A stretch of DNA of 64,000 nt, taken from the NCBI GenBank assembly GCA_021734945.1, contig JAIPIA010000002.1, positions 194,829-258,828 on the forward strand, written 5' to 3'. Both the position numbers and the translations under genes were made by a program. Below, in pieces: positions 26,138 through 56,341 of this stretch. The notes beneath the pieces are model-generated. The model searched no databases, was not told the origin of the DNA, and saw only the letters and a list, made by a program, of their open reading frames with translations. The stretch's first letter is position 1. Every line of letters starts with the position of its first letter. The DNA is from Minisyncoccota bacterium (lineage in GTDB: Bacteria; Patescibacteriota; Minisyncoccia; Phycocordibacterales; CAIZLB01).

Positions 26138-26980
26138 CTAAACCTCCGTCAAAATTTCTGCACCCTCCTCTGTAATCACAATAGTATGTTCAAAGTGAAC
26201 ACTTCTCTTTCCATCTTTAGTCTTAATTGTATAACCATCAGTATCTAGGAAAATATTTGCTTTGCCTTCGTTTAGAATAGGCTCGATTGCAACAACACTA
26301 CCTGGAACAAGTACAGGACCCTGCCCTTTTTTACCAAAATTCGGAATGAATGGATCCTCGTGAACTGAAAAACCTACACCGTGTCCACCGAGATATTCTG
26401 CCATATGAAAACCGTATTTCTTTTTATAAAATTCATTAGCCTTTTCTATTTCAGCACCAATATCCCCTGTCTTGATTCCCTTTGGATATTCTTTTCGCCA
26501 ATTCTTACACGCTTCCATTGCAGCATCCAAACATTCACGTCCAGCTTGTAGAAGTTTTCTACCTTTCTCATCTGTCTTATCTTCACCTCCAGCACAAACC
26601 GTAATAGCACTATCAACAATTCTGCCTTTATAAGAAACACCCATATCGAGTGTAACTAGATCACCAGGCAATATCACTCGAATCTTTTCATTTGGAATAC
26701 CGTGTACAACTACGTCATTTATAGAGAGAACCAACGCTGCTGGAAATGGTCGATCAGCTCCCTCAGGGGTATATCCTAAGAATGCAGGAGTAGCCCCAGC
26801 TTCAGCTGTGAGCTTTCGAGCAAGGTTTTCGAGGTCGAGAGACGAGACCGTCTTACCCTCAGGTGCGTCGGACGAAAAAGCAGACTGCACTTCAGCATCC
26901 AAAGCAGCTAGAATATTAGCCAGGATTTTGCCTGCCTGTCGTAAGATTTCTATGTCCTGTTTTGACTTAGTTTGTAACAT
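26138..26980 (-). CDS. map: Methionine aminopeptidase type I (with insertion)
   Basis: Pita-bread fold metal ligands (DLVTLDMG, GGHGVG, VVAIEPIL, FEHTIVIT). Confidence 0.8.
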   Translation of the reverse strand: MLQTKSKQDIEILRQAGKILANILAALDAEVQSAFSSDAPEGKTVSSLDLENLARKLTAEAGATPAFLGYTPEGADRPFPAALVLSINDVVVHGIPNEKIRVILPGDLVTLDMGVSYKGRIVDSAITVCAGGEDKTDEKGRKLLQAGRECLDAAMEACKNWRKEYPKGIKTGDIGAEIEKANEFYKKKYGFHMAEYLGGHGVGFSVHEDPFIPNFGKKGQGPVLVPGSVVAIEPILNEGKANIFLDTDGYTIKTKDGKRSVHFEHTIVITEEGAEILTEV

Positions 26981-27038
26981 TACTGATACTGTACCTCTAA
27001 TTCGATTTTATTTCCACCCAACCTTCATAGTATAAGAA

Positions 27039-27647
27039 TTACCAATTCAACCCTTTTGTAATAGCTTGCGTCACTTGATCGATAGTCTGCTCACCATTTA
27101 CGTGCACGAAGTTATATCCTGGAGCTTTTTCGAAATATTTGAGAGCTGGCAATACGTCAGTATCAAACCAATTTAGGCGTCGTTCTATTTGCTCCAAACT
27201 TGAGTCGTCTTTTCGTCCTTCGATTTTACTACGAGTAAACAAATGCTTCTTTGACCATTCTCGACTTACATCAATATGTATAACGATCGGTTTGGCGCGA
27301 TTGTAAAAAGAGATAGCAGAATCAAATACGAGTGCTTCTTCGTATGAACGTGGCATACCATCCACAATGAGATGCTCCTCTCCTGTCATTTCCTCTATAA
27401 GTACATGTGCCCAATTCCACACAGCGAGAAAATCTGGTTGTCGTCCGCCTGTATCAGTAATATATGAGGCAAGCTTGTTTGTATATCCAGGAAGTTTAAT
27501 AAATTCCCGAAATCGTGGACCTGTTTCGAGGTACATGATTTTTCTTTTTTCGTTATCCATCTTTTCAATATATTCACGCAGAATTTTTGCTTGAGTTCCC
27601 TTTCCACATCCTGAACGTCCTATGAAAATAAAAGTCTTTGGTTGCAT
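27039..27647 (-). CDS. adk: Adenylate kinase
   Basis: P-loop FIFIGRSGCGKGTQA. LID-less short form. Confidence 0.75.
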   Translation of the reverse strand: MQPKTFIFIGRSGCGKGTQAKILREYIEKMDNEKRKIMYLETGPRFREFIKLPGYTNKLASYITDTGGRQPDFLAVWNWAHVLIEEMTGEEHLIVDGMPRSYEEALVFDSAISFYNRAKPIVIHIDVSREWSKKHLFTRSKIEGRKDDSSLEQIERRLNWFDTDVLPALKYFEKAPGYNFVHVNGEQTIDQVTQAITKGLNW

Positions 27648-28014
27648 TGTTATTTTTGAGTAATTTGTTTAACGAAAATATGCTAAATAAACTTATTTGT
27701 AAAATAATTATATCACACCAATGATGCCGACCTCGGTTGTGATGCGAGGTCGGTGTGGGAAATTAATTTCGAGAAACATGCACTGATAGTTTTTTCTTTC
27801 CGGCGAGAGAAAGTTTTCTATCAGAGATAAGAGATTGAAACGCAGCTCCCTTTGGCGCCCAAAACATTTCTTGTTCTAGTTTCTTGAGATAGATCCCCAT
27901 TTCGCGCCGAGACATAAATGAATCGACATACGCCATATGTGCAAGACTCATATTCAGAATGGAAGGTTCAAAACTTCCAACCTAATTATACCATTTATCT
28001 ATTAAATCAAAATT

Positions 28015-28578
28015 CTATAAAATTTCTTTTGGTAGAGACTGCAGATACAAAGCAGTACAAAAAGTGATAACCGCCATTGGAATAAACACTGATTCGTAAC
28101 CATAATATTTAATAGCAAATCCTCCTGTTACTGAAGCGAGTCCTGAGGCTATAGAAGTGAGACCTTCCCATCCTCCCCAATCAGAAATTGCCTGTTCCTC
28201 TGAAGTGTGTTTTGTAAACATCGCATCATATGAAGGATTAACTAGAGCAATAGAGATACCAATCAAAATTTGGACTATTATTAAATCAAAAAAGCTGGTA
28301 ATGAAAAGAAACAGGACAAAAGCAAAAGAACGAAGAAACAAACCGCCTATCATTATTCTTCTTTTTTGATGAATAGTTGATTCCCAAGACCTAAAAAGTA
28401 AAATCATCAAACCTGAAACAATCGAAAAAACTGCCCAGGAAGCTCCTGCTATTTCGATTCCTCCACCTAGTTTTCCGACGAACAGTGCATAAAAGGGTGC
28501 AAAAAGACCTGTAAGAAAAGTAAGGAGAGTACTCACGGTTATAAGAATTCGTATACTTTTTTTGTGAATTTGTTCCAT
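28015..28578 (-). CDS. 6-TM membrane protein resembling one half of an MFS transporter
   Basis: Six hydrophobic helices. No room upstream for a second half, because livF ends 88 nt away. Confidence 0.35.
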   Translation of the reverse strand: MEQIHKKSIRILITVSTLLTFLTGLFAPFYALFVGKLGGGIEIAGASWAVFSIVSGLMILLFRSWESTIHQKRRIMIGGLFLRSFAFVLFLFITSFFDLIIVQILIGISIALVNPSYDAMFTKHTSEEQAISDWGGWEGLTSIASGLASVTGGFAIKYYGYESVFIPMAVITFCTALYLQSLPKEIL

Positions 28579-28666: not shown

Positions 28667-29485
28667 TTATTCTAGTGCTCCCAAAAACACTTTTTTAAAT
28701 ATTCCGCTATCTACTATATCTTGTCCTTTCCCTTCTGCCACAACCTTTCCCTTATCAAGTACATAAGCTCGATCTACAATTGGTAAAAGAGATTTTAGAT
28801 TATGTTCAACGACGACTATTGCCATACCTTTTTTCTGATTGATTTCGTGAATTTTTTCAAAAACTTCTTGTACTACTTTTGGAGCAAGCCCGAGTGATGG
28901 TTCGTCGAGAAGAAGTATTCGAGGGTCTGTTATGAGACCTCGTGCAATAGCAACCATTTGTTGTTGTCCACCAGAAAGCTCTCGTGACTTTTGCTTGAGT
29001 TTAGAACGCAATGCAGGAAAAAGACCAAGAACCTCTTCGACTCGTTCTTTTAGAACACTTTTATCTTTGAGTGTGATACCACCAATTTCCAAATTTTCTT
29101 TTACAGTCAAATTTCCAAATACACGCTTCCCTTGTGGAACAAGGGTAATACCCATAGGCACCATATGATGAGGCTGACGTAATTCCTCACTGATTTTATT
29201 TTGTCGCCAATAAACACCGCTATCAGTATTACCGTTATTTTTGCGATTAAGATTTTCTAAACTTTTTTCTAAATTTTCATGATGTTCACTCGAGACAATA
29301 GGAGCAAGACCAAAAATTGCTTTAAGGATAGTAGACTTACCAGCGCCATTTGGACCCATAAGAGCAACAACCTCACCCTCTTTGAAATGAACATTCACGG
29401 AATCTAGAGCCTTTACTCCGCCATAGGTAACACTCACATTTTTGAGCTCGATGAGAGTTTCACTTTCGTTAGAACTTTTAGTCAT
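28667..29485 (-). CDS. livF: Branched-chain amino acid ABC transporter ATP-binding protein LivF-like, with a ~30-aa insertion after Walker A
   Basis: GPNGAGKST, LSGGQQQMVAIARGL, LLLDEPSLGLAP. Extra segment SSEHHENLEKSLENLNRKNNGNTDSG. Confidence 0.65.
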   Translation of the reverse strand: MTKSSNESETLIELKNVSVTYGGVKALDSVNVHFKEGEVVALMGPNGAGKSTILKAIFGLAPIVSSEHHENLEKSLENLNRKNNGNTDSGVYWRQNKISEELRQPHHMVPMGITLVPQGKRVFGNLTVKENLEIGGITLKDKSVLKERVEEVLGLFPALRSKLKQKSRELSGGQQQMVAIARGLITDPRILLLDEPSLGLAPKVVQEVFEKIHEINQKKGMAIVVVEHNLKSLLPIVDRAYVLDKGKVVAEGKGQDIVDSGIFKKVFLGALE

Positions 29486-29582: not shown

Positions 29583-30251
29583 ATGGTATTCCCTTGTCAG
29601 AAAATCAGCTCACATCCACCCTTCAGTCACCCCCCCCACATCAACTCAGTACCTAATAGTCCTATGACAACAATCACACTCACCCCCGAACAGGTTTCAT
29701 TAAACCTGTTCTATTTCGGCATTACGTTCCTCCTTCTCGGCTCAATCGCCCGCAGGTGGGCTGAACTCAAGAAGGTCAGATTCGGCGTCATGCAAGTACC
29801 TCCCATTGACGGAAGACACGGCAAGCTTGAAAAAGCTCTCATGTATCCACTCAAAATAATTGGCTATGTCCTCGCAGTAAGCGCGATTTGGGTCCATGTG
29901 TCGTACACCCCTATTACGTACGGACTTCTCATCTCTTACGTCCTAGTCATCTGTGTCTACGTTGGAATACCATTCTGCTTTAAACCGGACAAAGACTTTT
30001 CGGTCAAAGACAATTGGCAAATTCAAAGAGAAAGATTGATTGCTGCAAGAGGAATGTACGCAATCACAATTCTTTTTGTTCCAACTTCGATTTTTGGGAA
30101 TTGGTGTTTCGGAAGCTTTGTACTCCTCTCTGTTTTTTTGTATGAGGTATTCGTTTTCTCAAACAAAGAACAAAAAAACTGGGAGGAATACGCCGATTTC
30201 GACATCGATCACTCAGAAGAGATTCCTCGGCCAACACCATCGACAGAGTGA
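29583..30251 (+). CDS. Polytopic membrane protein on GC-rich islet 2; N-terminal region contains a poly-C (8-9 nt) tract
   Basis: ORF-track frame encodes ...SHPPH... across the C-run. An alternative start MTTITLTPEQ lies just downstream. Four or five TM helices. GC well above the flanks. Confidence 0.4.
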   Translation: MVFPCQKISSHPPFSHPPHINSVPNSPMTTITLTPEQVSLNLFYFGITFLLLGSIARRWAELKKVRFGVMQVPPIDGRHGKLEKALMYPLKIIGYVLAVSAIWVHVSYTPITYGLLISYVLVICVYVGIPFCFKPDKDFSVKDNWQIQRERLIAARGMYAITILFVPTSIFGNWCFGSFVLLSVFLYEVFVFSNKEQKNWEEYADFDIDHSEEIPRPTPSTE

Positions 30252-30319: not shown

Positions 30320-30637
30320 TTAAATAACAACAGCAGTACCACTCACATTCACCATCAACATCCCTCCATGTGAGCCAACAGTTTCATAATCGAGATCAAC
30401 ACCAACGACAGCGTTTGCACCAAGAGCTGCAGCATTTTGCATAATTTCTGCAAGCGCTGCTTCACGAGCTTTTTTCAATTCACCTTCATACATTCCAGAA
30501 CGTCCACCAAAGAAGTCAGTGAATCCTGCAAATATGTCTTTTACAACATTTGCACCCATAATAACCTCTCCTGTTACAAGACCTTTATATTCTTTGATTG
30601 GCTTACCCTCAATAGTATTTGTTGTTGTGATTATCAT
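30320..30637 (-). CDS. YbjQ/UPF0145 (DUF74) family protein
   Basis: [48 protein letters not shown]...[13 protein letters not shown]. The ORF-track 5' extension was discarded. Confidence 0.6.
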
Positions 30638-30756
30638 ATTTTCATTATACCAATATATGAGCACTCTATAAATAGTAATGACATCAATCAAGAAAACGCT
30701 GACAGAGTTACCTGTCAGCGTCGAATTTATCACTTCTATATTACTTATATTTTGGT

Positions 30757-31683
30757 TTACCGATGTCGCTCGATCCATTGAACAATTTCCTTCACCCTAC
30801 TTTCGTGAGCAAGTATCTCTATGTAATCTTTCTGCACGACCTTCAAAGGAAGCTGCGGATTGAATTCATGGATTTCAAGGGTTTGAGGATTCAGCTTGAG
30901 ATGTTTGATTCCCAAAGCTTTATTCATACCGATGATTGGAGTGTTGTCCCAAGGAGTATCGAAACCATTTGGTCGTATGACCAACATACCGATTTCACCT
31001 TTCCACAGACGAGCGACCGTGATGCCAATACTACCGCTTGTAACCTCCATGTCTTTAAACACTCCTCCTTTCTTTTTACGAACCATCTTCCGTAAGACGG
31101 CTGGATAATCGTCAGGGGGATTCGTAAGAAGTACATACATCTCACCCAATGGAGTTTTGGTGTCAGGCTGAAGCAAACTCTTCACTCCAAAACGAGTACG
31201 TGTCGGAGGAAGTCCTTGTGCAAATTGGTATATCTCACCTGTGTTAACGTCCCCGATGCATACTGCGTCAACCTTACCTTTATTAACATGTGCGAGCATA
31301 GTACCCACACCAGTCGACTGTCTCCGGCCAAAAGCTCTTGTTCCATCGATTGGATCGTCAGTAAAGTAATCGCCGAGAGCAAAGCCTTTTTTAGGTTTAA
31401 GCATCAAAGCCTTTTCTTCACCAATGAGACCTACATTTGGATTCCACTTTAGAATCTCATTAACATGGTACTTCTGGACCTTGAGATCGCCACTTGTTAC
31501 CAAGTCAGCATCCACACCATTGTAGTGCAACTTAACAATCCGACTGAAATGAGCAGCTTCTTTTTGTGCAATCTTTATTGCTTTAGTGACAATTCGAAGC
31601 ATGAACTCATCAAGTTTTTCCTTCTGAACGTGAGTCCGAGGAATCCTTATATTTTTGCTTGCCTTTATATTGTGTCTTTTCAT
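30757..31683 (-). CDS. Inositol monophosphatase / FBPase-family (IMPase-like) protein
   Basis: DPIDGT metal-binding motif ([12 protein letters not shown]). LIGEEKA. Start set at internal Met MKRHNIK. Confidence 0.55.
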
Positions 31684-31896
31684 GGTATTTCTCTTTCCTT
31701 TTTGTTGTTTTGTACTGATCTGACTACAGTATGTTCGGAAAAAGTCATGTACGCTGAAAAAACACTCACTTATGTACACTTAATTTTGGAATAACCATTT
31801 AAAGCTTGTTTTATATTGTTTTTTTAGATAATATAAGTGTACAAAAATTAGTACAGTTTAATTAAAAATAAGTAAATATATACTAATAATAATTTC

Positions 31897-32625
31897 ATGA
31901 AAAAAACTAACGGTACTTCTACATTTTTAAAACAACTAGGTCTGACTGACGCAGAAATAAAAGTTTATACTTCTCTCTTAAGCATAGAAGAGTCATTAAT
32001 TGTAGATATTACGAAGACGACAGACCTGTACCGACCAGCAGTATACAAAGCAATCGAAGGTTTAAAAGAAAAAGGCTTGATAAGGATTTCATCAAAAGGA
32101 AAAAGACAAACTTACACAGCAGAGGCGCCAGATAGATTAGAAATACTTTTTAAAAACTTTGAGCAAACTTTTTTTAATAATATTGAGGACTTACATCAAA
32201 CATATGAGACAAGTAAAACAAAGCTAAATGTGTCTATGGCTGAAGGTGAAGATGCTATTACAGACGCATATAGTGATGTTATTCATTCGCTTAATAAAGG
32301 TGAGACTTACTATAGATATAGTTCTCTACATAATTTCCTAAAGAAAAAATATATTCCAAAAGATTATGAATATCTTAGAGATAAAAAAGGACTTGAGAGA
32401 TTAATAATAACTGGCAAGAAGACACCACACCAAAAACTTTTAGGGAGAAGTATTAAAATTATTCCGCCTGAATTTGATTTATTTCAAGATGAAATCAATG
32501 TAATTTTATACAAAGATAAAGTAGCGATTATTGACTACCCCTCAAAAACAACTATGACAATCAAGCATGCAAAATTTGCAGAATTTCAAAAGAAATTATT
32601 TAAACTGCTTTATTCAAAATTATAA
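31897..32625 (+). CDS. TrmB-family wHTH transcriptional regulator (paralog 2)
   Basis: LKQLGLTDAEIKVYTSLLSIEESLIVDITKTTDLYRPAVYKAIEGLKEKGLIRI. Confidence 0.6.
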   Translation: MKKTNGTSTFLKQLGLTDAEIKVYTSLLSIEESLIVDITKTTDLYRPAVYKAIEGLKEKGLIRISSKGKRQTYTAEAPDRLEILFKNFEQTFFNNIEDLHQTYETSKTKLNVSMAEGEDAITDAYSDVIHSLNKGETYYRYSSLHNFLKKKYIPKDYEYLRDKKGLERLIITGKKTPHQKLLGRSIKIIPPEFDLFQDEINVILYKDKVAIIDYPSKTTMTIKHAKFAEFQKKLFKLLYSKL

Positions 32626-32640: not shown

Positions 32641-33443
32641 CTACTCCCCCAAATAAGCCTCTACCACATCATGTCGAGCTAGGACCTCATGAACAGGACC
32701 CTCTGCAAGTAATTCCCCACTATCCATCACAATAACTCTATCTGAAAGTTCTCGTATCAAATCCATATTATGTTCAATTAAAACAATAGTTGCACCCTCT
32801 CTTCGTAATTCTTTCATTATCTCAGATACGAGTTTAACCATTTCAGGGAAAAGTCCAGCATACGGTTCATCAAAAAATATTATCTGTGCTTTACCAATTT
32901 CTCGCATAGCGAGTACGCGTGCAATCTCCAAAAGCTTACGTTGACCATATGAAAGATTCACCGCTAACTTATCACGAAATTGCCAAATACCAACTCGATG
33001 CAGAACCTTCTCGGCGATAGCCAAGGATATCCTCTATGTTTCTCGAAAATCCCCTTAAACCAACCTCGACATGTTGTAACGACAAGAATATTATCGAGCA
33101 CTGTCATTTGTTCAAATAAACGCACCTCTTGAAACGTTCGTGTAATTCCATAGACAGGCATGTCACTTGCATTCACTCGCTTTAATCCAACCTTGCCAGC
33201 TACCACTATTTCGCCAGATGTTACGGGAATAAGACCTGTCAGGACATTCACCAATGTAGATTTTCCTGAACCATTTGGACCAATAACACCAGTAATTTTC
33301 CCCTCCTCAAAATGAATAGATAGATCGTGAATTGCCCTCACAGTTTCAAACTGTTTTGTTAATGTGTGCGTTTTGAGGGCTGGAGTTGTTGTTTCTGTAG
33401 TAGTCATGTAGTTTCGCTGATATAGTATATCAAATAAAGCCAT
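32641..33443 (-). pseudogene. livG: Frameshifted LivG-like ABC ATPase
   Basis: Walker A/Q-loop part (GPNGSGKST...TFQEVRLF...DNILVV) lies in ORF 32964..33443. Signature/Walker B/H-loop part (LSYGQRKLLEIARVL...FFDEPYAGL...LIEHNM) lies in ORF 32641..33024. The two overlap in different frames. Confidence 0.55.
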
Positions 33444-33725
33444 GTCAAAACCAACTCATAAAAAGATAACCCGCAGTCATACAAGCGCCATTGGAAAAGC
33501 CGAGGAGGTTGTTGCTCTTATACAAAAGATACCTGCTGTGACAAAAATATCACTGGGCATCATCAAGCATATAGGTGTCGGTAAACCAACTGTAAAATTC
33601 CATGTAATTACAGGTGGATGCAAAGCAGTCATACGTGGAAATATTTCTATTCAAGAGATATTTGTCTACACAAAAGAAGTTGAGTTTGTGCAGAATAAGA
33701 TTAAGGGTTGTTTTAAGTAATGAAA

Positions 33726-34898
33726 CTACTTAACAATCTCAAACTTTGAACCCCTTACCTCCTTCACATATATAGGTACCTCCTTACTTAGATCACCATT
33801 CTGATCAAAACCAAAGTAACCCGTAAGTGTAACTGAAGCAGTATCCCCTTTCAAAACACATTCTTTCAATCCTTCTCCTATTTTAGAAGAGCAAGTTTTA
33901 TAATTATTTGATAGTTTATTTATCAAATCATATGCATAAGCACCGTATTGTTGAGGCTCACGACCATTAAACTTAGCCTTATATTCTTTACAGTATTGTT
34001 CAGTAGCACTATTTGATTCACATGAAAATGGAACTGCGGTAACCACAACTCCCTCATTTACGCCTTTAGTAATTTTCAAAAATTCATCACTATCTATACC
34101 TGAAAAACCAGCAACTAAACCTTTAAAGCCTAGTTCTCGAATACTTTTAATAACAGGACCTGCTGTTTTATCTACCCCCAGAACATAAATACTATCTGGT
34201 TTCGAGCTCAAAACTTTTGTCACAATTGTATTATATTCAACATCTTTTTTATAACCTTCTGTGTCAACGACCACTCCTCCACGAGAGGTAAAGTCTTCTG
34301 CAAATTGTTTTGTACCTGTAGTTAAAGTATCACTGCCAGAATCATATATGACTGCGACTTTATTTAGTTTTTCACCGTACATTGATGATCTAGACGCAAG
34401 AAATTCACTCATACGAGTTACCTCCCGTGTAATAGAAGGTTGTAGTGTAAGCGCAAAATCATCCTTACCCATCAACATAGGAGTAGCTGAGATAGCAAAA
34501 AATGGCACTTTAGATCTTTCTGAGACCGCAGACATTGCTATATTCACAGTGCTTCCTGGACCTGTAATAACAGCTTGTACCTTTTTATTTTGGATTAAAT
34601 TTTGAATTGCAGATATTCCCTTTTGTGGTTCACTAGCAGAATCTTCAATCCAAATACTTACAGAGTTGCCAACTTTTTCTTGGGCAAGTGCAATAGCGTT
34701 TTGTATGTCCTCACTTATTCCAGCAAAATTTCCAGTAATAGGAAGAACTACACCGATTTTTATTTGATTTGGATTAATCTGACTGCTGATTTGGTTATTA
34801 TGTTTGAAGTCACCTACTTCATAAATTCCCCATACCAGTACAAGCAGTGCGAGCGAAACATATATTGTTTTTTTATACATAGACATATTTAGAAACAT
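33726..34898 (-). CDS. LivJ/LivK-family periplasmic substrate-binding protein (Peripla_BP_6)
   Basis: Membrane anchor followed by IKIGVVLPITGNFAGISEDIQNAIALAQEKVG, typical of branched-chain amino acid/amide SBPs. Confidence 0.65.
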   Translation of the reverse strand: MFLNMSMYKKTIYVSLALLVLVWGIYEVGDFKHNNQISSQINPNQIKIGVVLPITGNFAGISEDIQNAIALAQEKVGNSVSIWIEDSASEPQKGISAIQNLIQNKKVQAVITGPGSTVNIAMSAVSERSKVPFFAISATPMLMGKDDFALTLQPSITREVTRMSEFLASRSSMYGEKLNKVAVIYDSGSDTLTTGTKQFAEDFTSRGGVVVDTEGYKKDVEYNTIVTKVLSSKPDSIYVLGVDKTAGPVIKSIRELGFKGLVAGFSGIDSDEFLKITKGVNEGVVVTAVPFSCESNSATEQYCKEYKAKFNGREPQQYGAYAYDLINKLSNNYKTCSSKIGEGLKECVLKGDTASVTLTGYFGFDQNGDLSKEVPIYVKEVRGSKFEIVK

Positions 34899-36790: not shown

Positions 36791-36955
36791 GAGATTTTAT
36801 ACTCTTATATTATGCCGTAAATATGTATTTTGTGAAAGTTTGACAGACAATCAGTTTTAGATAAAATATAGATACTTTTGGGATTTCCCACGACCCCGCT
36901 CGAGAGAGCGGGGATAATTTTTTCTAAAGGCCTAGTAGGATTTGTAATTTTCTCT

Positions 36956-45591: not shown

Positions 45592-45789
45592 ATAATATAT
45601 ACGGATTACGCTCCGTGTCAGCGCTTACATTTAATAACTCCACTACTATGCAACACATCTAGTGTTCTGTGTAATATTGGAACAATATTTAACTGTATAG
45701 TACCTATTTTATAAGGATATTCTGTATATTATAAAAATATTGTCCGTTTAGAGTGACATTTTAAAGCAGATATTGTATGCTACTTATAT

Positions 45790-46644: not shown

Positions 46645-46694
46645 CCTCAGTGGGACCAGCGGTTTTGCGTGAATCTATTTAAATCAAATCCTAA

Positions 46695-47852: not shown

Positions 47853-47979
47853 AAAATTGTGTTTAATTTATTAATTTAGCAACAGTATCTTACACATCTA
47901 TATTTATGTAAAACTGTTGACACGCTTTGACAACTAACACAGGTTTGAGCTACCATATTGATATAGATAGGTTGGTAAT

Positions 47980-48747
47980 GTGAATCGTAATAATAATTTT
48001 ATGGAACTTATAAACGACAAGGAGCGGCGGGTAATGGAAGCTCTTTTTAAACTTGGGAATTGTACGGTCAATCAAATATCTAAGGAAACCCTCATAAATC
48101 GTACCGCCCTCTATCACACACTGGGGCTTTTGATTAAAAAAGGGTTAGTGACACAAGTCGAGAAAGATAAGATCTCATACTATGAAGCAATATCCATTGA
48201 ACAATACGAGAAATGGGTGGAATCAAAAATCGAGACACTTAAACAAACCTCAAAGAAAGATGTGGCTATTTTTTCAACCGTTAAAAAAGACAAGAAGCTT
48301 TCACTCTACGCGGACGTAAAATACTTTGAAGGACCTGAAGGTATCAGAAACTTTTTTGCTGATAGCATTTATAATAATAAAGAAAAGCAGATTCTAACTA
48401 TTACTGACTATGAAAGTGGTTATGCAAAACTTGGTGACTGGTTTACTGAAGTATATTTACCTGAACGAGTACGAAAAGGTGTGCGAGTAAGGAGTGTATT
48501 GCCAGACTCCCCTATTGGGCGAAGTTATGTAAAATCTGCAAAGGAGCTTTTACGTGACATGTGCTTTGTAGATATTTTTAAAGATTTAGGGATAGAAATG
48601 GCAGTATATGATTCAAAAGTAACTATTACAGTATTCGATAAAAAGCATCCAATTGGCGTAATTATCAAAAACGATATTATTGCGAATGCATTTCGAGAGA
48701 TATTTACGTATATTTGGAAGACTGGGGAGAAAGTTAATATAAAGTAG
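47980..48747 (+). CDS. TrmB-like wHTH transcriptional regulator (paralog 6, more divergent)
   Basis: MEALFKLGNCTVNQISKETLINRTALYHTLGLLIKKGLVTQVE. Confidence 0.5.
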   Translation: MNRNNNFMELINDKERRVMEALFKLGNCTVNQISKETLINRTALYHTLGLLIKKGLVTQVEKDKISYYEAISIEQYEKWVESKIETLKQTSKKDVAIFSTVKKDKKLSLYADVKYFEGPEGIRNFFADSIYNNKEKQILTITDYESGYAKLGDWFTEVYLPERVRKGVRVRSVLPDSPIGRSYVKSAKELLRDMCFVDIFKDLGIEMAVYDSKVTITVFDKKHPIGVIIKNDIIANAFREIFTYIWKTGEKVNIK

Positions 48748-48845
48748 TTTCAATCGATTGAGGACGGTCATTAAAAAAAACCAATAAAAAAAACACCCAC
48801 ACATTTAAGCGAGGTGTTTTATATTAGTCCTATCTTGTTGTTAAA

Positions 48846-50000
48846 TTACTTTAAATCCTGAACCTTACCATCCTTGAAAACTCTTGCCTTATGACCTCCA
48901 ACAAGATCCCCATTAGCACCTATAGTTACAGAACCTGAAGCACCATTCCAATTTGCAATACGATGGCCGAAATCAGCAATCTTTGTACCGTCATATCCAA
49001 CCTTAGTAATTGCATCTTTTACGATATATATAGCATCGTATACTGTCTGTCCATAACTCTGGTACGGCATATCTTTTCCGTACTTAGTTTTATACACTTC
49101 AAGCAAGTGTGCAAAAGTCTTGTTTGATGAATCAGTGCTAAATTCAGCTCCCACCATACCATTTAATGCGTCCTTATATTTTGAGAGTACATCAGTAGCA
49201 CCAAGAGTAATATCATTTGTAAACAATGATACGTTCCACTTGAGAGCAATCATTTGAGCAGTTATAGCATCTGCTGAAGCAGGAATATTTGAATCAATAA
49301 ACAAAGCATCTGCTTTCTGTGACTGAAGTTTAGAGAGTTGTGTTCTAAAATCTTTAGTTGCAGGAGCATACTCCTCTTTGATAACCTGACCACCTAAACT
49401 TGTAAATTTATCTGCAAATGCTTTATAAATACCAGCAGTATAATCTGTCTGTTCTTGTATAAAGGCAACCTTTCTCTTTCCCATGTCATGCGCCATTTGA
49501 GCTAATACAGAACCCTGACTACTATCACTTGGAAAGTTTCTAAAGAAATATGAGCTTTTACCTGTAAGACTAGGATTGCTTGATGCAGCTGAGATCAAGG
49601 CAACTTTTGCAGTCTCTGCTACTGGAAGTGCAGCCAGTGTTTCAGCACTACAAAAACCTCCAATAATTACTTGCACCTTATCAACATTCACGAGCTTCTG
49701 AGCAGCATTAACAGCACCTTCTCCATTGCATTTTCCATCTTCAATAATTACTTCAACTCTTTTTCCACTTATTCCCCCTGAAGAGTTTATTTCATCTGCA
49801 GCAATTTGAAGTGTATTTCGAACAAGCTCACCATATGTAGCAGCATCACCAGTAAGTGGTGCAATAGCTCCCACTTTGTAAGTAGATAGTGTATCCACAG
49901 TCTTTTGTACTTCATCAACTTTACTACTTTTACCGGACAGAGAAGACAGTCCCCAGACAACCAACACAATAATCACAATCCAACCAATAGCTTTATTCAT
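48846..50000 (-). CDS. LivJ-family periplasmic substrate-binding protein
   Basis: YKVGAIAPLTGDAATYGELVRNTLQIAADEINSSGGISGKRVEVIIED. Confidence 0.65.
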   Translation of the reverse strand: MNKAIGWIVIIVLVVWGLSSLSGKSSKVDEVQKTVDTLSTYKVGAIAPLTGDAATYGELVRNTLQIAADEINSSGGISGKRVEVIIEDGKCNGEGAVNAAQKLVNVDKVQVIIGGFCSAETLAALPVAETAKVALISAASSNPSLTGKSSYFFRNFPSDSSQGSVLAQMAHDMGKRKVAFIQEQTDYTAGIYKAFADKFTSLGGQVIKEEYAPATKDFRTQLSKLQSQKADALFIDSNIPASADAITAQMIALKWNVSLFTNDITLGATDVLSKYKDALNGMVGAEFSTDSSNKTFAHLLEVYKTKYGKDMPYQSYGQTVYDAIYIVKDAITKVGYDGTKIADFGHRIANWNGASGSVTIGANGDLVGGHKARVFKDGKVQDLK

Positions 50001-50153
50001 AATTGTTGTAAATATTTATAATATCTACAATCGTAGCATCAACTTTACTTATGTCAACTATATTCGTCAATACATATATAAAATTAGCCATATTTATAGG
50101 CGTATTATTGTACATTAATTAAAATTGTGGATGTTATTTGACACAAATATACA

Positions 50154-50957
50154 TTGCAATATATACTTAAAATAATGAAATCAAATAATTCTCAAATAAA
50201 AATAAATCTGCAATCTTTCGGCTTTAGTGAGAAGGAGGTGGATGTATATATTGCGTTATTAGAGTTAGGAAAAGGGACTGTTTCTGAAATTTCACGAAAA
50301 GCTGGAATAAACAGAACAACTGGATATGACATTCTTGGATCACTAGCTACAAAAGGTGTTGTGAATGTATCAGGAAAAGAACCTAAACAAGAATATGCAG
50401 CAGAGTCCCCAGCTTCAATAACACAGTATTTAAAAAGAATAGCTGCTGAGACTGCAGAGCATATTAAAAAATCTGAGGAAATTATCCCCGAACTAGAAGT
50501 TCTTCATGCACTCAAAAATAGACCTAAAATTAGATTTTATGAAGGTAAAGAAGGCTTGCAACATGTATACGAAGATACACTTACATCTTCTGAACCTATT
50601 CGTGCATACGCGACAATCGACGACATGTATAAAGCACTTCCCAACTACTTTCCTGAATACTATAAAAGAAGAGCTAAGAAAGGTATTACAATAAGAGGTA
50701 TTGTTCCAAAGACAGCTGCTGGAATAGATAGAAAAAAATATGACAAGGAAGAGAAGAGAGAAATTGCTTTTGTACCTGCAGATAAATATTATTTTTCACC
50801 TGAAATAAACATATATGACAACAAAGTAATGATTGCTTCTTGGCGAGAAAATCTAGGCATTATCATCGAAAGTGCTGAGATTGCTGATGTTATGAAGAAA
50901 ATGTATGAATTGGCTTGGACTGAGGCTAAGAGGTTGGATAAGGAAGGTGATAAATAA
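50154..50957 (+). CDS. TrmB-family wHTH transcriptional regulator (paralog 7)
   Basis: LQSFGFSEKEVDVYIALLELGKGTVSEISRKAGINRTTGYDILGSLATKGVVN. Confidence 0.6.
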   Translation: MQYILKIMKSNNSQIKINLQSFGFSEKEVDVYIALLELGKGTVSEISRKAGINRTTGYDILGSLATKGVVNVSGKEPKQEYAAESPASITQYLKRIAAETAEHIKKSEEIIPELEVLHALKNRPKIRFYEGKEGLQHVYEDTLTSSEPIRAYATIDDMYKALPNYFPEYYKRRAKKGITIRGIVPKTAAGIDRKKYDKEEKREIAFVPADKYYFSPEINIYDNKVMIASWRENLGIIIESAEIADVMKKMYELAWTEAKRLDKEGDK

Positions 50958-51080: not shown

Positions 51081-51989
51081 TTAAAGCATCGCACTGAACT
51101 TCGTGCCAGTGAGAGCAAGACCCCAGAAACCTTTTGTTCTGACCAATTTCTGAGTATCTTCCCCATCGAAGCTGTTTGGGAGATGTGTCAGAAACATCTT
51201 ACTTTTTGCATCGACAGGCAGAGTGACAAGTGAATCAAATGGCGCATGTACTGGATCATTAGGAAACGGTGATGCATCATGAATCATCACTTTACAACGT
51301 GGAGCATACGACTTGATCAGACCCGCGTCGAAGCGAGTGTCACCTGAAATCCAGATCAAATCATTAATCAGAACTCCAGTGCTCCAAGCTGATTCTTGCC
51401 ATGATGAAGCGACAGCCGGTGTGTGCATGGTTCGGAAAGCCTCGATCTTGAAACTTCCTTTTTTGAACTGATAGATATCTCTGTCTGCGAAGGAACTGTC
51501 CTCCGTAGGCAAAAGAATGTCGTACCAGCGGTTTGAGGGCAAAGTTTTGAGGTCGTCTCCACCTTCATCCTTCGAGGACCTCAACGAATCGTGTGAGGAC
51601 AATCCGCCTGATAGACTATTGTTCCACAGATCTTGTGCCCAAGTGCGAGGAGCCCACAATGTGGCTTTGGCACCAGGGACATTACCGCGGAAATAGCGGT
51701 TATCGATGAGCATCCGATCGAGACCACCTATGTGATCTCCATGAGCATGAGTGATAAAGAAGTTTGAAATCGAAGCAGGATTGATTCCAAACCGAGTGAA
51801 CGACGCAGGAACGTTGTAGCCGCAGTCGATAAGTAAAGATTCCTTACCGAGAACAGCAATGAAACTCGTGTGCGTGTTTGCCTGCGCGGCCCCGTGACCA
51901 ATAGCATAGACTTCGAGCTGACTGCCGTCGTTTTGAAGCGAGACAGCACTAAACTGCGTAACTTTAACATGGGCTGGTTTGATTTTCAT
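51081..51989 (-). CDS. MBL-fold metallo-hydrolase
   Basis: FITHAHGDHIGGL (HxHxDH) and additional His/Asp ligands. Confidence 0.55.
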   Translation of the reverse strand: MKIKPAHVKVTQFSAVSLQNDGSQLEVYAIGHGAAQANTHTSFIAVLGKESLLIDCGYNVPASFTRFGINPASISNFFITHAHGDHIGGLDRMLIDNRYFRGNVPGAKATLWAPRTWAQDLWNNSLSGGLSSHDSLRSSKDEGGDDLKTLPSNRWYDILLPTEDSSFADRDIYQFKKGSFKIEAFRTMHTPAVASSWQESAWSTGVLINDLIWISGDTRFDAGLIKSYAPRCKVMIHDASPFPNDPVHAPFDSLVTLPVDAKSKMFLTHLPNSFDGEDTQKLVRTKGFWGLALTGTKFSAML

Positions 51990-52278: not shown

Positions 52279-53028
52279 ATGACTGAACTTATTGAACTAA
52301 TTAAAAACAGTGGGTTAACAGAGAAAGAATCAAAAATATATCTTGCGGCTTTAGAACTGGGAGAAGGAACAGTACAAGATATATCTAAAAAATCTGGAGT
52401 TGTTCGTACTTCCCTATACTATATTATCGAACGACTTGTGAGAGAAGGCTTTCTTATTGAAACAAAAAGAAACCGTAAAAACTTTTACATGGCTTGCCCA
52501 CCAATGGATGTAGCAACAAAACTTCGTCAGAGAATTCGTGAATTTGAGACGCACATAAATATTCTCGAAGCGCGACGTGGTGCTCTATATAAGAGACCAC
52601 GTATGTATTTCTTGCATGGTCCGAGTGGTTTCAAAGAAGCTTGGAATATTATTTTTAAATCTGATCCACGCGAATATTCTATAATCACGGAGGGACTCAA
52701 CTTTCTCGATTATGTGAAGGCAAAGTATATTGTGACTGAAATAATTTCTCAGAAGAAAAAACTCGGAGTACGCAGTAAACAAATGATCATCGATTCACCT
52801 TATGCACGTGAACATATTTTACCTAAAGATAAATTGGAAAATAGAAAAAGCCGACTACTCCCCCGAGGTATGAGACTTGGTTTTACAGAAGTAATATGTC
52901 CGAAGCTTGTTGCTTTTATTTCACCAAAATACAATGATAGTATTTTTATAATCGAAGATGCAGTGTTCGCTGAAACACGTAAGGTACTGTTTGATCAGTT
53001 GTGGTATACGTTGCCGGAGGTGAAGTAA
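52279..53028 (+). CDS. TrmB-family wHTH transcriptional regulator (paralog 8)
   Basis: IKNSGLTEKESKIYLAALELGEGTVQDISKKSGVVRTSLYYIIERLVREGFLIE. Confidence 0.6.
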   Translation: MTELIELIKNSGLTEKESKIYLAALELGEGTVQDISKKSGVVRTSLYYIIERLVREGFLIETKRNRKNFYMACPPMDVATKLRQRIREFETHINILEARRGALYKRPRMYFLHGPSGFKEAWNIIFKSDPREYSIITEGLNFLDYVKAKYIVTEIISQKKKLGVRSKQMIIDSPYAREHILPKDKLENRKSRLLPRGMRLGFTEVICPKLVAFISPKYNDSIFIIEDAVFAETRKVLFDQLWYTLPEVK

Positions 53029-53102: not shown

Positions 53103-53126
53103 TGCAAATTGAAAAGATATGAGAAA

Positions 53127-53969
53127 TTATTTAAACTGCTTCACAACCTCTTCAAAAGGCATACCATAGTTGAAACCAGGATCCTGATCTTGAAGTCTCC
53201 CTCGGCTACTTTTATCGTATTTCGGGTGATTCTTGAGTGAGAAAAAAACCACCATTGAGTAGCGACCTGCATTCGCCGTTTCTTGATTTGCTACAACACG
53301 GTGACAGAGAGCATTGATTTTACCTTCAGAAACATACTGAAGTTGGTAACCTGGAAAGATTACCGTCTCAGTCTCAGACACCGGTGTGTCAAACCACTCT
53401 TTATCACCATAACTTAGACCTTGGAGCCCTGGGGCACTTTCGAACAAGTGAAATGTAAAAGCACTCTTATCAATATGAGACACAGCAGTACTCTCACCTA
53501 CCTTACGCTCACCTGGATAGTACAGAAACCGTACAAACCAAGTACCCATACTTGCCGAAACTTCATTCATAAAATTGTCGATACCGAAGTGAGTTTCAAC
53601 ATCATGTGCAAATGACAAGACTGAAGGAGAAAGACGGCCGATCAACTCTCCTGCCGCATCGACAAGAGTACGCGACACCCCTTGCAGCTCAGTATTTTCA
53701 AGTCCACAAATTGCATCATTCAAAACATCGGCACCATCAAACGTAAAATGAAAATCTTTCTTTCGGTCATCTGTTGGTCCAGTTCCTTGTTGATGTTCAT
53801 AGCCAACTCCATTTTTGTATGGAAATTGATCAGTGACTGAATCAGAAAGACTAACAAATTTCTTCCAAGATTCCAGAGCTTTTTTTACAGCAGTACGCAA
53901 ATCTGTAGGATAAGCCAATCTGTACAGCCCATTAGTTCTGAATCCTTCAATTGATTGTTTTGTTTCCAT
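53127..53969 (-). CDS. 2-oxoglutarate/Fe(II)-dependent oxygenase-like protein
   Basis: HxD (VSHIDKS) ... H (LCHRVV) ... RxS (RYSMVVF), spaced as in the 2OG-FeII_Oxy fold. Confidence 0.4.
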   Translation of the reverse strand: METKQSIEGFRTNGLYRLAYPTDLRTAVKKALESWKKFVSLSDSVTDQFPYKNGVGYEHQQGTGPTDDRKKDFHFTFDGADVLNDAICGLENTELQGVSRTLVDAAGELIGRLSPSVLSFAHDVETHFGIDNFMNEVSASMGTWFVRFLYYPGERKVGESTAVSHIDKSAFTFHLFESAPGLQGLSYGDKEWFDTPVSETETVIFPGYQLQYVSEGKINALCHRVVANQETANAGRYSMVVFFSLKNHPKYDKSSRGRLQDQDPGFNYGMPFEEVVKQFK

Positions 53970-54083: not shown

Positions 54084-54110
54084 AGCAAAAAAAGCGAGGA
54101 CTTCCTCGGT
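54084..54110 (-). terminator. Rho-independent terminator after the secY-Nudix transcription unit
   Basis: On - strand: GCGAGGAagtCCTCGC followed by tttttttgctttt. Confidence 0.5.
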
Positions 54111-54173
54111 AAAAATAGTCATATTTTAGAACACTAAATAGAATAAATAAGGTGTCTATTTTCAATCTAACAC

Positions 54174-54923
54174 CTAGGGCTGCTTTTCGCCTTTTTTCTC
54201 AACTTCACTGTATAAGAAAGGTAAATCGTATATAGTTCCATCTTTTACTGCTTGTATTACCATAGCAATCATTTCGATACAATCGAAAGTATCATATGCT
54301 TCATTTTCTAAAGCTTTTTCAATAGGTACCCACATATTTTCCCCAAACTCTGTTGAGATAAGCTCACCACCTGTTATACAGTCTGAATATGCAATTGGGA
54401 AAAATAAATCTGAAAATAATTCATCTTTCACATACATTATTCTTCGTTCAATCCCGATAAGTTTAAACTCTGCCTCAAGTCCTGTTTCTTGCTTTAGTTT
54501 TCGGGAAGCTGCAGTTAAGGTATTCTCACCTTTCCAAATAACACCTCCCATTACGCCAATCTTTCCATACGATGGGTTTGATTTTCGAAGTTGATTGAGA
54601 ATTTCAATTTTTCCATCTACAACTCGCGATACTATTGTAATTACATTTGCCTTGAATAAACTTGTAATAACCTTACTGTCTGAAAGAATAGGATCTGCCA
54701 TATGCTTAACACCCAACTCCGAAAGAGCATAACCTTCTGACTCGCCTGTCTTTCCGAGCTTTTCTATAAAACCTTTTTTTACCAAAAACTGGAGATGATA
54801 ATTAAAGAGGTCATTTTGAATACGATACTCCGGCATAAGTTCACTGTATCTTAAAGATTTTGCATTCTTTAGCTTTGAAAGAATATGATTTTGAATTGGA
54901 GAAAATCCGCTATTAATAGACAT
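54174..54923 (-). CDS. wHTH-Nudix hydrolase fusion protein
   Basis: N-terminal winged helix (YHLQFLVKKGFIEKLGK). Nudix box GGVIWKGENTLTAASRKLKQETGLEAEF. Start set at internal Met MSINSG. Confidence 0.5.
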   Translation of the reverse strand: MSINSGFSPIQNHILSKLKNAKSLRYSELMPEYRIQNDLFNYHLQFLVKKGFIEKLGKTGESEGYALSELGVKHMADPILSDSKVITSLFKANVITIVSRVVDGKIEILNQLRKSNPSYGKIGVMGGVIWKGENTLTAASRKLKQETGLEAEFKLIGIERRIMYVKDELFSDLFFPIAYSDCITGGELISTEFGENMWVPIEKALENEAYDTFDCIEMIAMVIQAVKDGTIYDLPFLYSEVEKKGEKQP

Positions 54924-55069
54924 AAGTGTCCTAAAATTAACATAATATAGACTTATAACAAAGCTGTTTCCTTCACAAAAAAAACACCCATTTCTGGGTA
55001 TTTTTTCATCTATCAAAATCAAGATCTGATTGGAGTAGGTTGAGCCTGAGCTTCGGCTTTGTATAGAGA

Positions 55070-56341
55070 CTAGTACTCTCTCATAGACAACTGAGCGTCT
55101 ACTTTCTTTACGATATCGAGAACTACTGATACTACGATAAGAAGTCCTGTACCACCAACAGTAAGGTATGAAATACCTGTAATAGCCTTGAGAACCGGTG
55201 GAAGCACCGCCACAAGTGCTAGGAAGAGCGCACCAACGAGAGTGATACGAGTTACCACCTTACCAAGATACGCCTCTGTAGACTCACCAGGACGCACGCC
55301 AGGGATAAATGCTCCACCCTTCTGAAGATTCTCAGATATAGACTTTGGGTCGAACGTAACTGCTGTATAGAAGAATGTGAAGAAGAATACAAGTACAAAG
55401 TAAGCGCCAGCGTAGAACCATGGGTTAGCCATCAAATCAGTAACAATAAGAGCTAACTTATCTATTGCAGGATAATGCAAATATGTAAGGAAGTTCAATA
55501 CCATCTGTGGAAGCAAGAGAAGTGAGAGAGCAAAGATGATAGGGATAACTCCAGCTTGGTTAAGTCGAAGTGGAAGGTATGTAGAAGTACCACCATGAGT
55601 CTGACCACCTCGTATCTGCTTTGCATATGTTACTGGAATAGGTCGTTCTGCTTCTGTAATATATACAACCAAAAGCACCATAAGGAGCGCTAGTGCACCA
55701 AGTGCGATATATGTAAACAAATCTTCAATCTGGAATGCATAGAAAATCTGAGATGCAACTTGTGGGACAACAGCAACGATACCAGCAAAGATAATCATTG
55801 AGAGACCGTTACCGATACCGAACTCTGTCATAACCTCACCAAGCCACATGAGGAATACTGAACCAGCTACGATAACTAGTACGTTTGTAAGAAGAGAAAA
55901 TGAATCAAGTGAGGCTACGATACCTTGTCGCTGTAAGAGTACGATGAATCCGAAAGCCTGTGCAAATGCAAGAGGAACAGAAAGGAGTCGTGAATACTGT
56001 GAAAACTTTTTTCGCCCAATAGCACCCTCTTCCTGGTACATAGACTTAAGCTTTGGAGACATCATAGTCAAAAGCTGCATAATAATAGAAGCAGTAATGT
56101 ATGGGCCTACACCGAGCATTACGATAGAGAGAGTAGAAAGTCCTCCTCCTGAGAAAATATTTAAAAGACCGAAAAATTGGTTACTATCTAAAAACTGTGA
56201 AAGAGCAGTTTGGTCTACTCCAGGGATTGGGATAACTGAAAGAACACGGAATGCTGCAAGAATACCCAAAACAAAAAGAACCTGTTTTCGTAAGGCTGAA
56301 TCCTGAAAAATGTGCTTTATTTTCTGTATGAAATTTGACAT
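55070..56341 (-). CDS. secY: Preprotein translocase subunit SecY
   Basis: 10-TM protein. LSVIPIPGVD, GVGPYITASIIMQLL motifs. Confidence 0.85.
   Translation of the reverse strand: MSNFIQKIKHIFQDSALRKQVLFVLGILAAFRVLSVIPIPGVDQTALSQFLDSNQFFGLLNIFSGGGLSTLSIVMLGVGPYITASIIMQLLTMMSPKLKSMYQEEGAIGRKKFSQYSRLLSVPLAFAQAFGFIVLLQRQGIVASLDSFSLLTNVLVIVAGSVFLMWLGEVMTEFGIGNGLSMIIFAGIVAVVPQVASQIFYAFQIEDLFTYIALGALALLMVLLVVYITEAERPIPVTYAKQIRGGQTHGGTSTYLPLRLNQAGVIPIIFALSLLLLPQMVLNFLTYLHYPAIDKLALIVTDLMANPWFYAGAYFVLVFFFTFFYTAVTFDPKSISENLQKGGAFIPGVRPGESTEAYLGKVVTRITLVGALFLALVAVLPPVLKAITGISYLTVGGTGLLIVVSVVLDIVKKVDAQLSMREY

Follow-up and report, generated by a model that had tools for sequence, protein, structure and literature searches.

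The DNA examined here is a window of 64,000 nucleotides from the metagenome-assembled genome (MAG) of a Minisyncoccota bacterium (GenBank assembly GCA_021734945.1, contig JAIPIA010000002.1, positions 194,829 to 258,828). The window has a G+C content of ~37%, encodes DUF5652 and DUF5667 proteins, and derives from an organism of the candidate phyla radiation (CPR; Patescibacteria, Paceibacteria). An exact look-up of its SecY matched no record, whereas one of its binding proteins (SBP385) is 100% identical to a protein from an NCBI ‘Candidatus Pacebacteria’ MAG. Its ribosomal protein genes, from S19 to L15, lie on the minus strand and close with rplO and secY. The interval between secY and the co-oriented genes adk and map is the subject of this study. 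An initial annotation had claimed that secY is split from adk-map by ~27 kb with the orientation maintained, that no ribosomal gene resides in between, and that the region is a hotspot of insertion. The interval is bracketed by two pairs of core genes.

56425-56865, minus strand: rplO (left anchor; Pfam Ribosomal_L27A)
55070-56341, minus strand: secY (left anchor; Pfam SecY, 343 bits)
27039-27647, minus strand: adk (right anchor; Pfam ADK, 50.9 bits)
26138-26980, minus strand: map (right anchor; Pfam Peptidase_M24, 119.5 bits)

The distance from the secY stop to the adk start is 27,422 bp (27648-55069), which bears out the proposed split, and ~29 non-ribosomal genes are located inside. All open reading frames (ORFs) of at least 80 amino acids (aa) in the interval were compared with Pfam, and selected ORFs also with NCBIfam. 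None of the ORFs covered by the Pfam scan is a ribosomal protein gene, in agreement with the initial annotation, and each type of cargo it had named (LivJ-type substrate-binding proteins (SBPs), TrmB-like regulators, MazF-like proteins, PpaC and DUF1653) was found by Pfam. In the direction from secY to adk, the interval carries the following genes, assigned by Pfam unless noted. GC3 denotes the G+C content at third codon positions, and the numbers in names such as TrmB267 serve to tell paralogues apart.

54174-55022, minus strand: NUDIX hydrolase with a helix-turn-helix (HTH)-like N-terminal region, beginning 47 bp past secY
53127-53969, minus strand: 2-oxoglutarate (2OG)-Fe(II) oxygenase
52279-53028, plus strand: TrmB249b, a TrmBL2-like regulator (TrmB), head-to-head with the next gene
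51081-51989, minus strand: metallo-beta-lactamase (MBL)-fold hydrolase (Lactamase_B, Apyc1 family); GC3 0.47
44467-50957, both strands: three head-to-head pairs, TrmB267/SBP384, TrmB255/SBP385 and TrmB284/SBP374 (TrmB, Peripla_BP_6)
43617-44348, minus strand: methyltransferase
43314-43553, minus strand: DUF1653 protein
42391-43311, minus strand: LivH-like ABC permease (BPD_transp_2, 142 bits; best NCBIfam match LivH, under the equivalog cut-off)
40736-42127, minus strand: MazF-like domain fused to the family II inorganic pyrophosphatase PpaC (PemK, DHH, DHHA2)
39943-40692, plus strand: TrmB249a, head-to-head with the next run of genes
35924 to upstream of TrmB249a, co-directional: run of SBP360, SBP378, MazF122 and a LivM-like gene
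35924-36790, minus strand: the LivM-like permease of this run (BPD_transp_2, 163 bits; best NCBIfam match LivM, under the equivalog cut-off)
35088-35849, plus strand: TrmB253, head-to-head with SBP390
33726-34898, minus strand: SBP390
33442-33720, plus strand: DUF2103 protein
32641-33443, minus strand: LivG-like ABC ATPase in two ORFs of 159 aa and 127 aa (halves of ABC_tran, BCA_ABC_TP_C; NCBIfam LivG/UrtD)
31897-32625, plus strand: TrmB242, head-to-head with an IMPase-family gene
30757-31779, minus strand: the IMPase-family gene
30320-30778, minus strand: YbjQ protein
29583-30251, plus strand: 222-aa ORF without a Pfam family; GC3 0.49
28667-29485, minus strand: LivF/UrtE-like ABC ATPase, intact (Pfam, NCBIfam)
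28015-28578, minus strand: MFS187, a half-size protein of the major facilitator superfamily (MFS), directly upstream of adk

The arrangement in related genomes was established by a SecY scan using one genome per GTDB species, which yielded 80 loci (designated by L numbers) at 54-91% identity. Proteins of the window were placed on these loci by tblastn, and the secY-adk gap was measured in 69 of them. Relatives were viewed as 10 kb on either side of the matches, such that ‘absent’ here means absent from the interval and not from the whole genome; the contigs of L002, L084, L085 and L103 are partial. The pair of rplO and secY, with which the S10/spc ribosomal cluster ends, is collinear in all 80 loci, and orthologues of adk and map were recognized in at least 65. 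The median secY-adk gap among the 69 loci is 227 bp. In 32 of them secY adjoins adk with a gap of no more than 150 bp, another 35 carry one to three genes in a gap of 150-2200 bp, and only L001 and L003 have a gap of more than 7 kb. Outside the subclade that includes the window, the gap never exceeds 2.2 kb. Judged against the canonical arrangement, wherein adk directly follows secY, typically within 150 bp, the window retains the orientation and has lost the adjacency. Because the median gap is 227 bp and gaps stay at or below 2.2 kb everywhere outside this subclade, the split is a derived feature. Adjacency of secY and adk is ancestral, small additions are tolerated class-wide, and large gaps are limited to the subclade of the window.

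The small fillers between secY and adk are mainly guanylate kinase (gmk) ORFs (22, with one or two copies per locus) and cytidylate-kinase-like (cmk-like) ORFs (4), seen in L007, L012, L015, L036, L044, L064, L072 and others. In many Paceibacteria, such genes and adk make up a cluster for nucleoside-monophosphate kinases with which the spc block ends. The linkage is wholly lost in L039 (3560-8007), L066 (1593-6063) and L078 (4149-5732). By motif-based assignment, secY is followed in two of these loci by genes for pilin-like membrane proteins and by tpiA-like and pgk-like genes, and in the third by rpsB-like and tsf-like genes.

A neighbour-joining tree of the flanking proteins S8, L6, L18, S5, L15 and SecY (1281 columns, 100 bootstraps) groups the window with L001 (support 100), then with L104 (86), L082 (91) and L003 (91); the pair L004 and L005, and then the outgroups, fall outside. 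When arranged by this tree, with the partial contigs placed last, the loci form a stepwise series.

L009, L010 and L020 (outgroups): gap 6-28 bp, no genes
L004: gap 75 bp, no genes
L005: gap 2.2 kb, including a half-size MFS gene
L003: gap 7.25 kb; extracytoplasmic function (ECF) sigma factor and DUF5667, TrmB249b-MBL, DUF2103, another TrmB, radical SAM
L082: gap 2.3 kb; unfused PpaC and two small ORFs
L104/L105: gap 6.5 kb; NUDIX, TrmB249b-MBL, 280-aa gene, PpaC, DUF2103, MFS187, 281-aa gene (280-aa and 281-aa genes without a family)
L001: gap 7.9 kb; TrmB249b-MBL, DUF1653, MazF::PpaC, DUF2103, TrmB242-IMPase, MFS187
L002 (partial; sister of L001, SecY 95%): secY-DUF1653-LivH-MazF::PpaC
L084 (partial): NUDIX-2OG-PpaC-adk-map
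L085 (partial): LivH, two ORFs, PpaC, TrmB253 homologue

These data permit a test proposed in the initial annotation, namely to align the locus with its closest relatives and to see whether they carry the same interleaved gene order. They do not. At 76-91% SecY identity there are at least seven configurations (the window, L001, L002, L003, L082, L084 and L104), and no two relatives have equal content; the interval is variable and derived, with secY and adk adjacent in L004 and in the outgroups. A backbone of 6.5-8 kb, consisting of TrmB249b and the MBL gene, ppaC, DUF2103 and the half-size MFS gene, is common to the window, L001 and L104/L105, and partly to L003. This backbone is ancestral to the subclade. 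Among its members, the TrmB249b-MBL pair is found in L001, L003, L104 and L105, DUF2103 in L001, L003 and L104, and the MFS gene also adjoins adk in L001, L005 and L104; in most relatives the island has ppaC as its anchor. Beyond the backbone, segments of the interval recur piecemeal. The NUDIX and 2OG oxygenase genes lie upstream of ppaC-adk-map in L084 (66% and 63% identity), L001 also has TrmB242 and the IMPase gene (78% and 71%), and L103 contains the array of three TrmB/SBP pairs in identical order, followed by LivH and a free-standing MazF. The LivH-like gene occurs in L002, L085 and L103. In L085, whose LivH and unfused PpaC are 79% and 83% identical to those of the window, an orthologue of TrmB253 (61%) adjoins PpaC, and the block from TrmB249a to LivM is lacking between the two. 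On both sides of the interval, gene order is maintained. The flanks of L082 and L104 are collinear with those of the window from S19 to secY and through adk, map, the VirD4-like gene, ndk, a 124-aa gene and an RNase J-like gene (19461-20951 in the window), and collinearity from S8 to secY and of adk-map was likewise confirmed in L001 and L003.

Alignments of the interval reveal individual events of turnover. LivH has been cleanly lost in L001, where 139 nucleotides correspond to 966 nucleotides carrying LivH in the window and in L002. The methyltransferase-DUF1653 block constitutes a 1.08-kb indel that is missing from L103. For the MBL protein, the window and L104 are 89% identical, versus 59% for the window and L001 and 61% for L001 and L104; the corresponding values for MFS187 are 85%, 47% and 46%. 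TrmB249b, encoded next to the MBL gene, is 92-96% identical in all pairs among these three loci. Because the MBL and MFS187 identities are discordant with the flanks, which group the window with L001, they suggest that the L001 copies of both genes are allele replacements. In L003 the gap includes genes for an ECF sigma factor and a DUF5667 protein (11567-13541), whereas their homologues in the window (54% and 31% identity) are located ~24 kb past adk (1581-3282); these genes have apparently moved either into the gap or out of it. Orthologous TrmB/SBP pairs are present in L101 and L102 in unrelated neighbourhoods without secY or adk nearby. The divergence of the paralogues, with only 23-36% identity among the SBPs and 21-37% among the TrmB proteins, rules out that the SBP/TrmB array arose by recent tandem duplication.

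The composition of the interval is native. Relative synonymous codon usage (RSCU) in the interval correlates with that of the 25 kb beyond adk at r = 0.977, GC3 is 0.284 compared with 0.291, and tetranucleotide correlations (r = 0.92-0.96) are as high as elsewhere in the window. These three measures rule out a foreign composition of the island as a whole; raised GC3 is confined to the MBL gene, the IMPase gene and the 222-aa ORF. Pfam matches to an integrase, recombinase, transposase or relaxase are lacking among the ORFs of at least 80 aa, there is no tRNA gene and no Rfam match, and no direct or inverted repeats bracket the interval. A megablast search against 50,697 phage and 72,556 plasmid records gave no match, and comparison with PHROG gave generic matches only, without phage structural families. 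An origin of the interval as a mobile element is largely refuted by these results.

The longest exact repeat is an internal 20-mer, AGAAATTATTTAAACTGCTT, which occurs twice on the plus strand (32591-32610 and 53122-53141; 0.02 occurrences expected by chance). The copy at 32591 falls within the 3' end of TrmB242, and that at 53122 overlaps the stop codon of the 2OG oxygenase gene. Examination of this repeat as a possible recombination scar revealed unrelated flanks at its two copies. At the junctions of the interval, a terminator-like hairpin past the NUDIX gene (54108-54095) and a -35/-10-like site ahead of adk are consensus matches only and serve as leads. Over both junctions, neither promoter-like sites (7 versus 6.7 expected, and 11 versus 9.1) nor terminator-like sites (4 versus 1.5, and 4 versus 2.0) exceed shuffled controls.

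Eight genes for proteins with a TrmB HTH domain are present in the 64 kb, seven of them in the interval (31897-53028) and one at 3318-4073. With 33-66 bits, each of the eight proteins exceeds the Pfam cut-off of 25.6 bits (PDB 3qph E 1e-5), and all eight genes stand head-to-head with a neighbour. The partners are five LivJ-type SBP genes, one NMT1-type SBP gene (outside the interval), one MBL hydrolase gene and one IMPase-family gene. Pfam gave no match beyond residue ~90 of these proteins, which lack a C-terminal sugar-binding effector domain of the TrmB type. An AlphaFold2 model of TrmB267 built from the eight paralogues (pLDDT 87.4) has TrmBL2 (PDB 5bpd, E 5e-14) as its best full-length match, and its C-terminal domain is predicted to be PLD-like, corresponding to a shorter TrmBL2 architecture. 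The ratio of nonsynonymous to synonymous substitution rates (dN/dS) relative to L103 (dS 0.4-1.5) amounts to 0.005 in one regulator, 0.011 in another and 0.04 in a third, and to 0.05-0.12 in the SBPs and LivH. Two of the regulators are 99% identical in protein to those of L103 although their dS is 0.45-0.64. The interval genes compared with L103 are functional and under strong purifying selection. Judging from gene arrangement, each regulator presumably acts on the gene or short operon from which it diverges, and the local regulators most likely serve as a repressor or activator of their own binding-protein gene. Outside the interval, the window encodes a protein of 519 aa (6067-7626, plus strand) in which an ABC ATPase domain is fused to an NMT1/THI5-type substrate-binding domain; the ABC cluster that contains this fusion (4276-7626) is head-to-head with a TrmB-like gene.

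The cargo also includes the parts of a HAAT-type importer, namely LivH-like and LivM-like permeases and LivF/UrtE-like and LivG/UrtD-like ATPases, all of whose NCBIfam matches fall under the equivalog cut-offs. There are six LivJ-type binding proteins (Peripla_BP_6, 101-189 bits), each with an N-terminal hydrophobic anchor. From these features we suggest that the window likely encodes one shared Liv/HAAT translocator that is fed by several separately regulated binding proteins, and that its solutes are likely several amino-acid-like compounds. Three-frame translation of the LivG-like gene locates a single frameshift near 33020-33040, outside any homopolymer run, and this is due either to a genuine mutation that inactivates the gene or to a fault in the assembly.

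Among the remaining genes, the MazF/PemK-like domain (residues 30-128) is in frame with a complete PpaC (residues 155-460; PDB 1wpp, E 5e-53). The homologues in L001 and L002, of 478 aa and 480 aa, retain this fusion. L082, L084-L087 and L104 encode PpaC on its own, as a protein of 309-315 aa, and at the position of the window's fusion L103 carries a separate MazF gene of 131 aa. In L086 and L087, PpaC lies in unrelated contexts. The second gene with a PemK domain, MazF122 (36956-37324, minus strand), is located inside the run from SBP360 to LivM. No cognate antitoxin gene is recognizable beside it: only 65 nucleotides lie upstream, and the one candidate is a 61-aa ORF (36805-36990) that overlaps its end. 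In L015, L046, L080, L102 and L103, further MazF-like genes lie close to secY or to TrmB/SBP arrays. With 67.6 bits, the MBL hydrolase passes the Pfam threshold of 50 for the Anti-Pycsar Apyc1 family.

Downstream of map, three further genes on the minus strand were assigned by Pfam.

within 21701-25928, after map, minus strand: 146-aa ORF without a family
22353-25406, minus strand: VirD4/TraG/HerA-like ATPase of 1017 aa with a DUF8128-type N-terminal region
21701-22462, minus strand: ndk

The initial annotation had listed a VirD4-like ATPase and ndk here, both of which were found, and had noted that the infA-rpmJ-rpsM-rpsK-rpsD-rpoA-rplQ block that usually follows map is absent. The absence is true. 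When E. coli sequences were used as queries, InfA, RpmJ, RpsM and RpsK had no match in the window or within 10 kb in 103 loci, while S8 and L14 queries, used as positive controls, did match. It is not a local peculiarity of the window, however. In 44 of the 49 loci with enough sequence, map is followed by the VirD4-like gene and/or ndk, and because this state is class-wide, with alpha-operon genes in none of the 103 loci, the missing block does not represent local damage. The order of map followed by the VirD4-like gene and/or ndk is ancestral to the class and not part of the variable region. The ndk ORF comprises 253 aa, and its true start is probably downstream of the TTG codon, given that its relatives are 208-213 aa long. 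On the far side of secY, the L30 gene is not present between S5 and L15. Ribosomal protein S5 (56901-57617, minus strand; 238 aa) has an N-terminal extension of ~90 residues ahead of the Pfam S5 domain, which is variable and rich in indels in close relatives (73-76% identity, compared with 85-96% for the adjoining ribosomal proteins).

We hypothesize that the secY|adk interval is a lineage-specific plasticity region in which native genes have been gained, lost and replaced between core blocks, and we regard this as the probable explanation. It would be a hotspot between core genes and not a mobile island because its composition is native, marks of mobile elements are lacking and its genes are under purifying selection. 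The earlier proposal of an insertion hotspot is therefore retained in part: the interval is indeed derived and variable, but its native composition, ancestral backbone, deletion and allele replacements show that it is not simply inserted accessory DNA. In the course of events we envisage, the secY|adk joint would have been opened in the ancestor of the subclade by a TrmBL2-like regulator with the MBL gene, ppaC, DUF2103 and the half-size MFS gene. With contiguity gone, the gap could have become a tolerated sink between two collinear core blocks, in which genes may have been added, removed, brought in from other parts of the genome, and exchanged one allele at a time. The process most likely relied on homologous recombination anchored in the conserved flanks and the shared backbone genes, without a mobile element. 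The direction of each gain or loss in this scheme is one we infer.

Several points weigh against this explanation. Relatives were compared only within 10 kb of the matches, so that absence from the interval need not mean absence from the genome, and the region may be no more fluid than the rest of the genome. The case for recombination is built on discordant identities, and fast evolution in L001 could mimic this signal. The secY-NUDIX junction has no independent contig support, the LivG frameshift means that the importer may be inactive or that the assembly is in error, and inspection by eye of the eight divergent intergenic regions gave no common operator motif. Moreover, most of the extra ~20 kb could reflect either gain or loss. 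LivH, PpaC and a TrmB253 homologue are linked already in the more distant L085, so that a large ancestral island with repeated losses is possible. If a large Liv/SBP/TrmB island had resided between secY and adk in the ancestor, then L001, L104, L082 and L084 would have been reduced by deletion and the window would represent retention. This agrees with the clean deletion of LivH in L001 relative to L002 and the window, and with NUDIX-2OG-ppaC being present in the deeper L084 as in the window while missing from L001, L082 and L002. Reductive evolution is also typical of CPR genomes. However, many independent deletions would be needed, each removing only Liv parts that are interleaved with the backbone (L104, L082, L003 and L001), secY adjoins adk in the outgroups, and TrmB/SBP orthologue pairs occur in unrelated contexts in L101 and L102. 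Furthermore, in a search of 5.8 billion proteins, neither the NCBI nor the ENA sources of L001 and L104 yielded an orthologue of SBP385 with more than 70% identity. We consider retention of an ancestral island unlikely, but it is the most probable of the alternatives.

Far less probable are three other explanations. An integrated mobile element that targets the end of the spc operon, such as a genomic island, an integrative and conjugative or mobilizable element, or a prophage remnant, is brought to mind by the large size of the interval, the two MazF-like genes (toxin-antitoxin genes often ride on islands), the three genes with raised GC3, the assignment of the MBL gene to the Apyc1 family and the nearby VirD4-like ATPase. 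However, the VirD4-like gene is not part of the interval but a conserved companion of map throughout the class, and the cargo is typical of the lineage, with orthologues across Paceibacteria. With no integrase, transposase or relaxase, no tRNA, no flanking repeats, native codon and tetranucleotide usage, and no phage or plasmid match, such an element is hardly credible. The same low standing applies to an artefact of assembly or binning, in which the 327-kb contig is chimeric and secY and adk are truly adjacent. The source is a MAG, and the secY-NUDIX junction lacks independent confirmation, but composition is uniform across the window and contigs from other samples repeat most of the internal linkages: MFS187-adk in L001, L005 and L104, DUF1653-LivH-MazF::PpaC in L002, three TrmB/SBP pairs followed by LivH in L103, TrmB249b-MBL in L001, L003 and L104, and NUDIX-2OG in L084. 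Finally, the interleaved order might be a fixed ancestral core order of the lineage and no hotspot at all. The backbone shared by the window, L001, L104/L105 and partly L003 speaks for this view, yet at least seven configurations exist among close relatives, L004 and the outgroups retain adjacency, and indels are found even relative to L103, whose regulators are 99% identical. We judge a fixed order to be very improbable, if marginally less so than an artefact or a mobile element.

Within the plasticity region that we favour, the regulator and binding-protein genes invite a more speculative proposal, which we advance tentatively and consider rather doubtful at present. A head-to-head TrmBL2-like regulator and LivJ-type SBP might form a modular sensing and uptake unit specific to Paceibacteria, shuffled, added and dropped as a cassette around a single Liv translocator, with the opened secY|adk joint as a collecting site. 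Each unit would combine a near-invariant regulator (dN/dS 0.005-0.011) with a faster binding protein (0.05-0.12). If true, a host-dependent and regulator-poor CPR bacterium would maintain exchangeable receptors for nutrients or host metabolites beside its most highly transcribed operon. No paper in the library searched links TrmB with CPR. The TrmBL2-like regulator/binding-protein pairs are the most promising lead from this locus and possibly represent an important, undescribed regulatory theme in CPR.

More generally, the locus suggests that a linkage among the most conserved in bacteria can turn into a sink for gene turnover even in a very small, streamlined CPR genome and without a mobile element. 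A sink of 27 kb would occupy ~3-4% of such a genome, if its size is as we assume. The relatives provide a series of intermediate states, with gaps of 0, 2, 6.5, 8 and 27 kb, which lends support from a distant phylum to the view that a first small insertion relaxes selection on the synteny of the ribosomal cluster. A practical consequence is that adjacency of secY, adk and map is not a safe check of assembly or completeness in Paceibacteria.

The importer and regulators of the window resemble known systems in part. As in the LIV-I system of E. coli (LivJ and LivK with LivHMGF), LivH-, LivM-, LivG- and LivF-like components are combined with multiple Peripla_BP_6 proteins. Unlike LIV-I, the window has six binding proteins and its genes are scattered over 21 kb rather than gathered in one operon; a separate divergent regulator accompanies each binding-protein gene or small operon, and LivG is frameshifted. 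The regulators share the TrmB winged helix, and a predicted fold matching TrmBL2, with archaeal TrmB and TrmBL2 proteins (Thermococcales). The archaeal TrmB of the trehalose/maltose ABC cluster adjoins ABC binding-protein genes, as the regulators of the window do. However, the window proteins are bacterial (CPR) and lack the C-terminal sugar-binding subdomain, and within 27 kb there are seven paralogues, each of them paired head-to-head with a single target. Ligand sensing by the window regulators is only putative, as TrmBL2 itself is a chromatin protein that acts independently of a ligand.

At the level of the locus, integration hotspots or regions of genome plasticity flanked by core genes have reportedly been described in E. 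coli. Like these, the interval is bracketed by collinear core genes, contains differing gene sets in relatives, and has undergone gains, losses and allele replacements. The comparison differs from that in E. coli in that it involves MAGs separated at the species to genus level and not strains of one species, and the window region carries no prophage, integrase or tRNA, while its cargo is native and under strong purifying selection. A closer parallel is offered by the ribosomal supercluster of Gammaproteobacteria and Bacilli, in which small native insertions between operons were followed by loss of contiguity (PMC8046335), and in which such insertions relax selection for synteny (PMC8046335). 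In both cases a few native, non-mobile genes are found at a block boundary without signs of transfer from a distant taxon, and contiguity is lost later. The window differs from the supercluster cases in that the affected joint, secY|adk, is internal to an extended spc block and not a border of named operons, the organism belongs to the CPR, the two halves are still co-oriented and only 27 kb apart, and the gap keeps turning over. A plasticity hotspot of this kind is already known, and it is the place of this one, the secY|adk joint, that is unusual.

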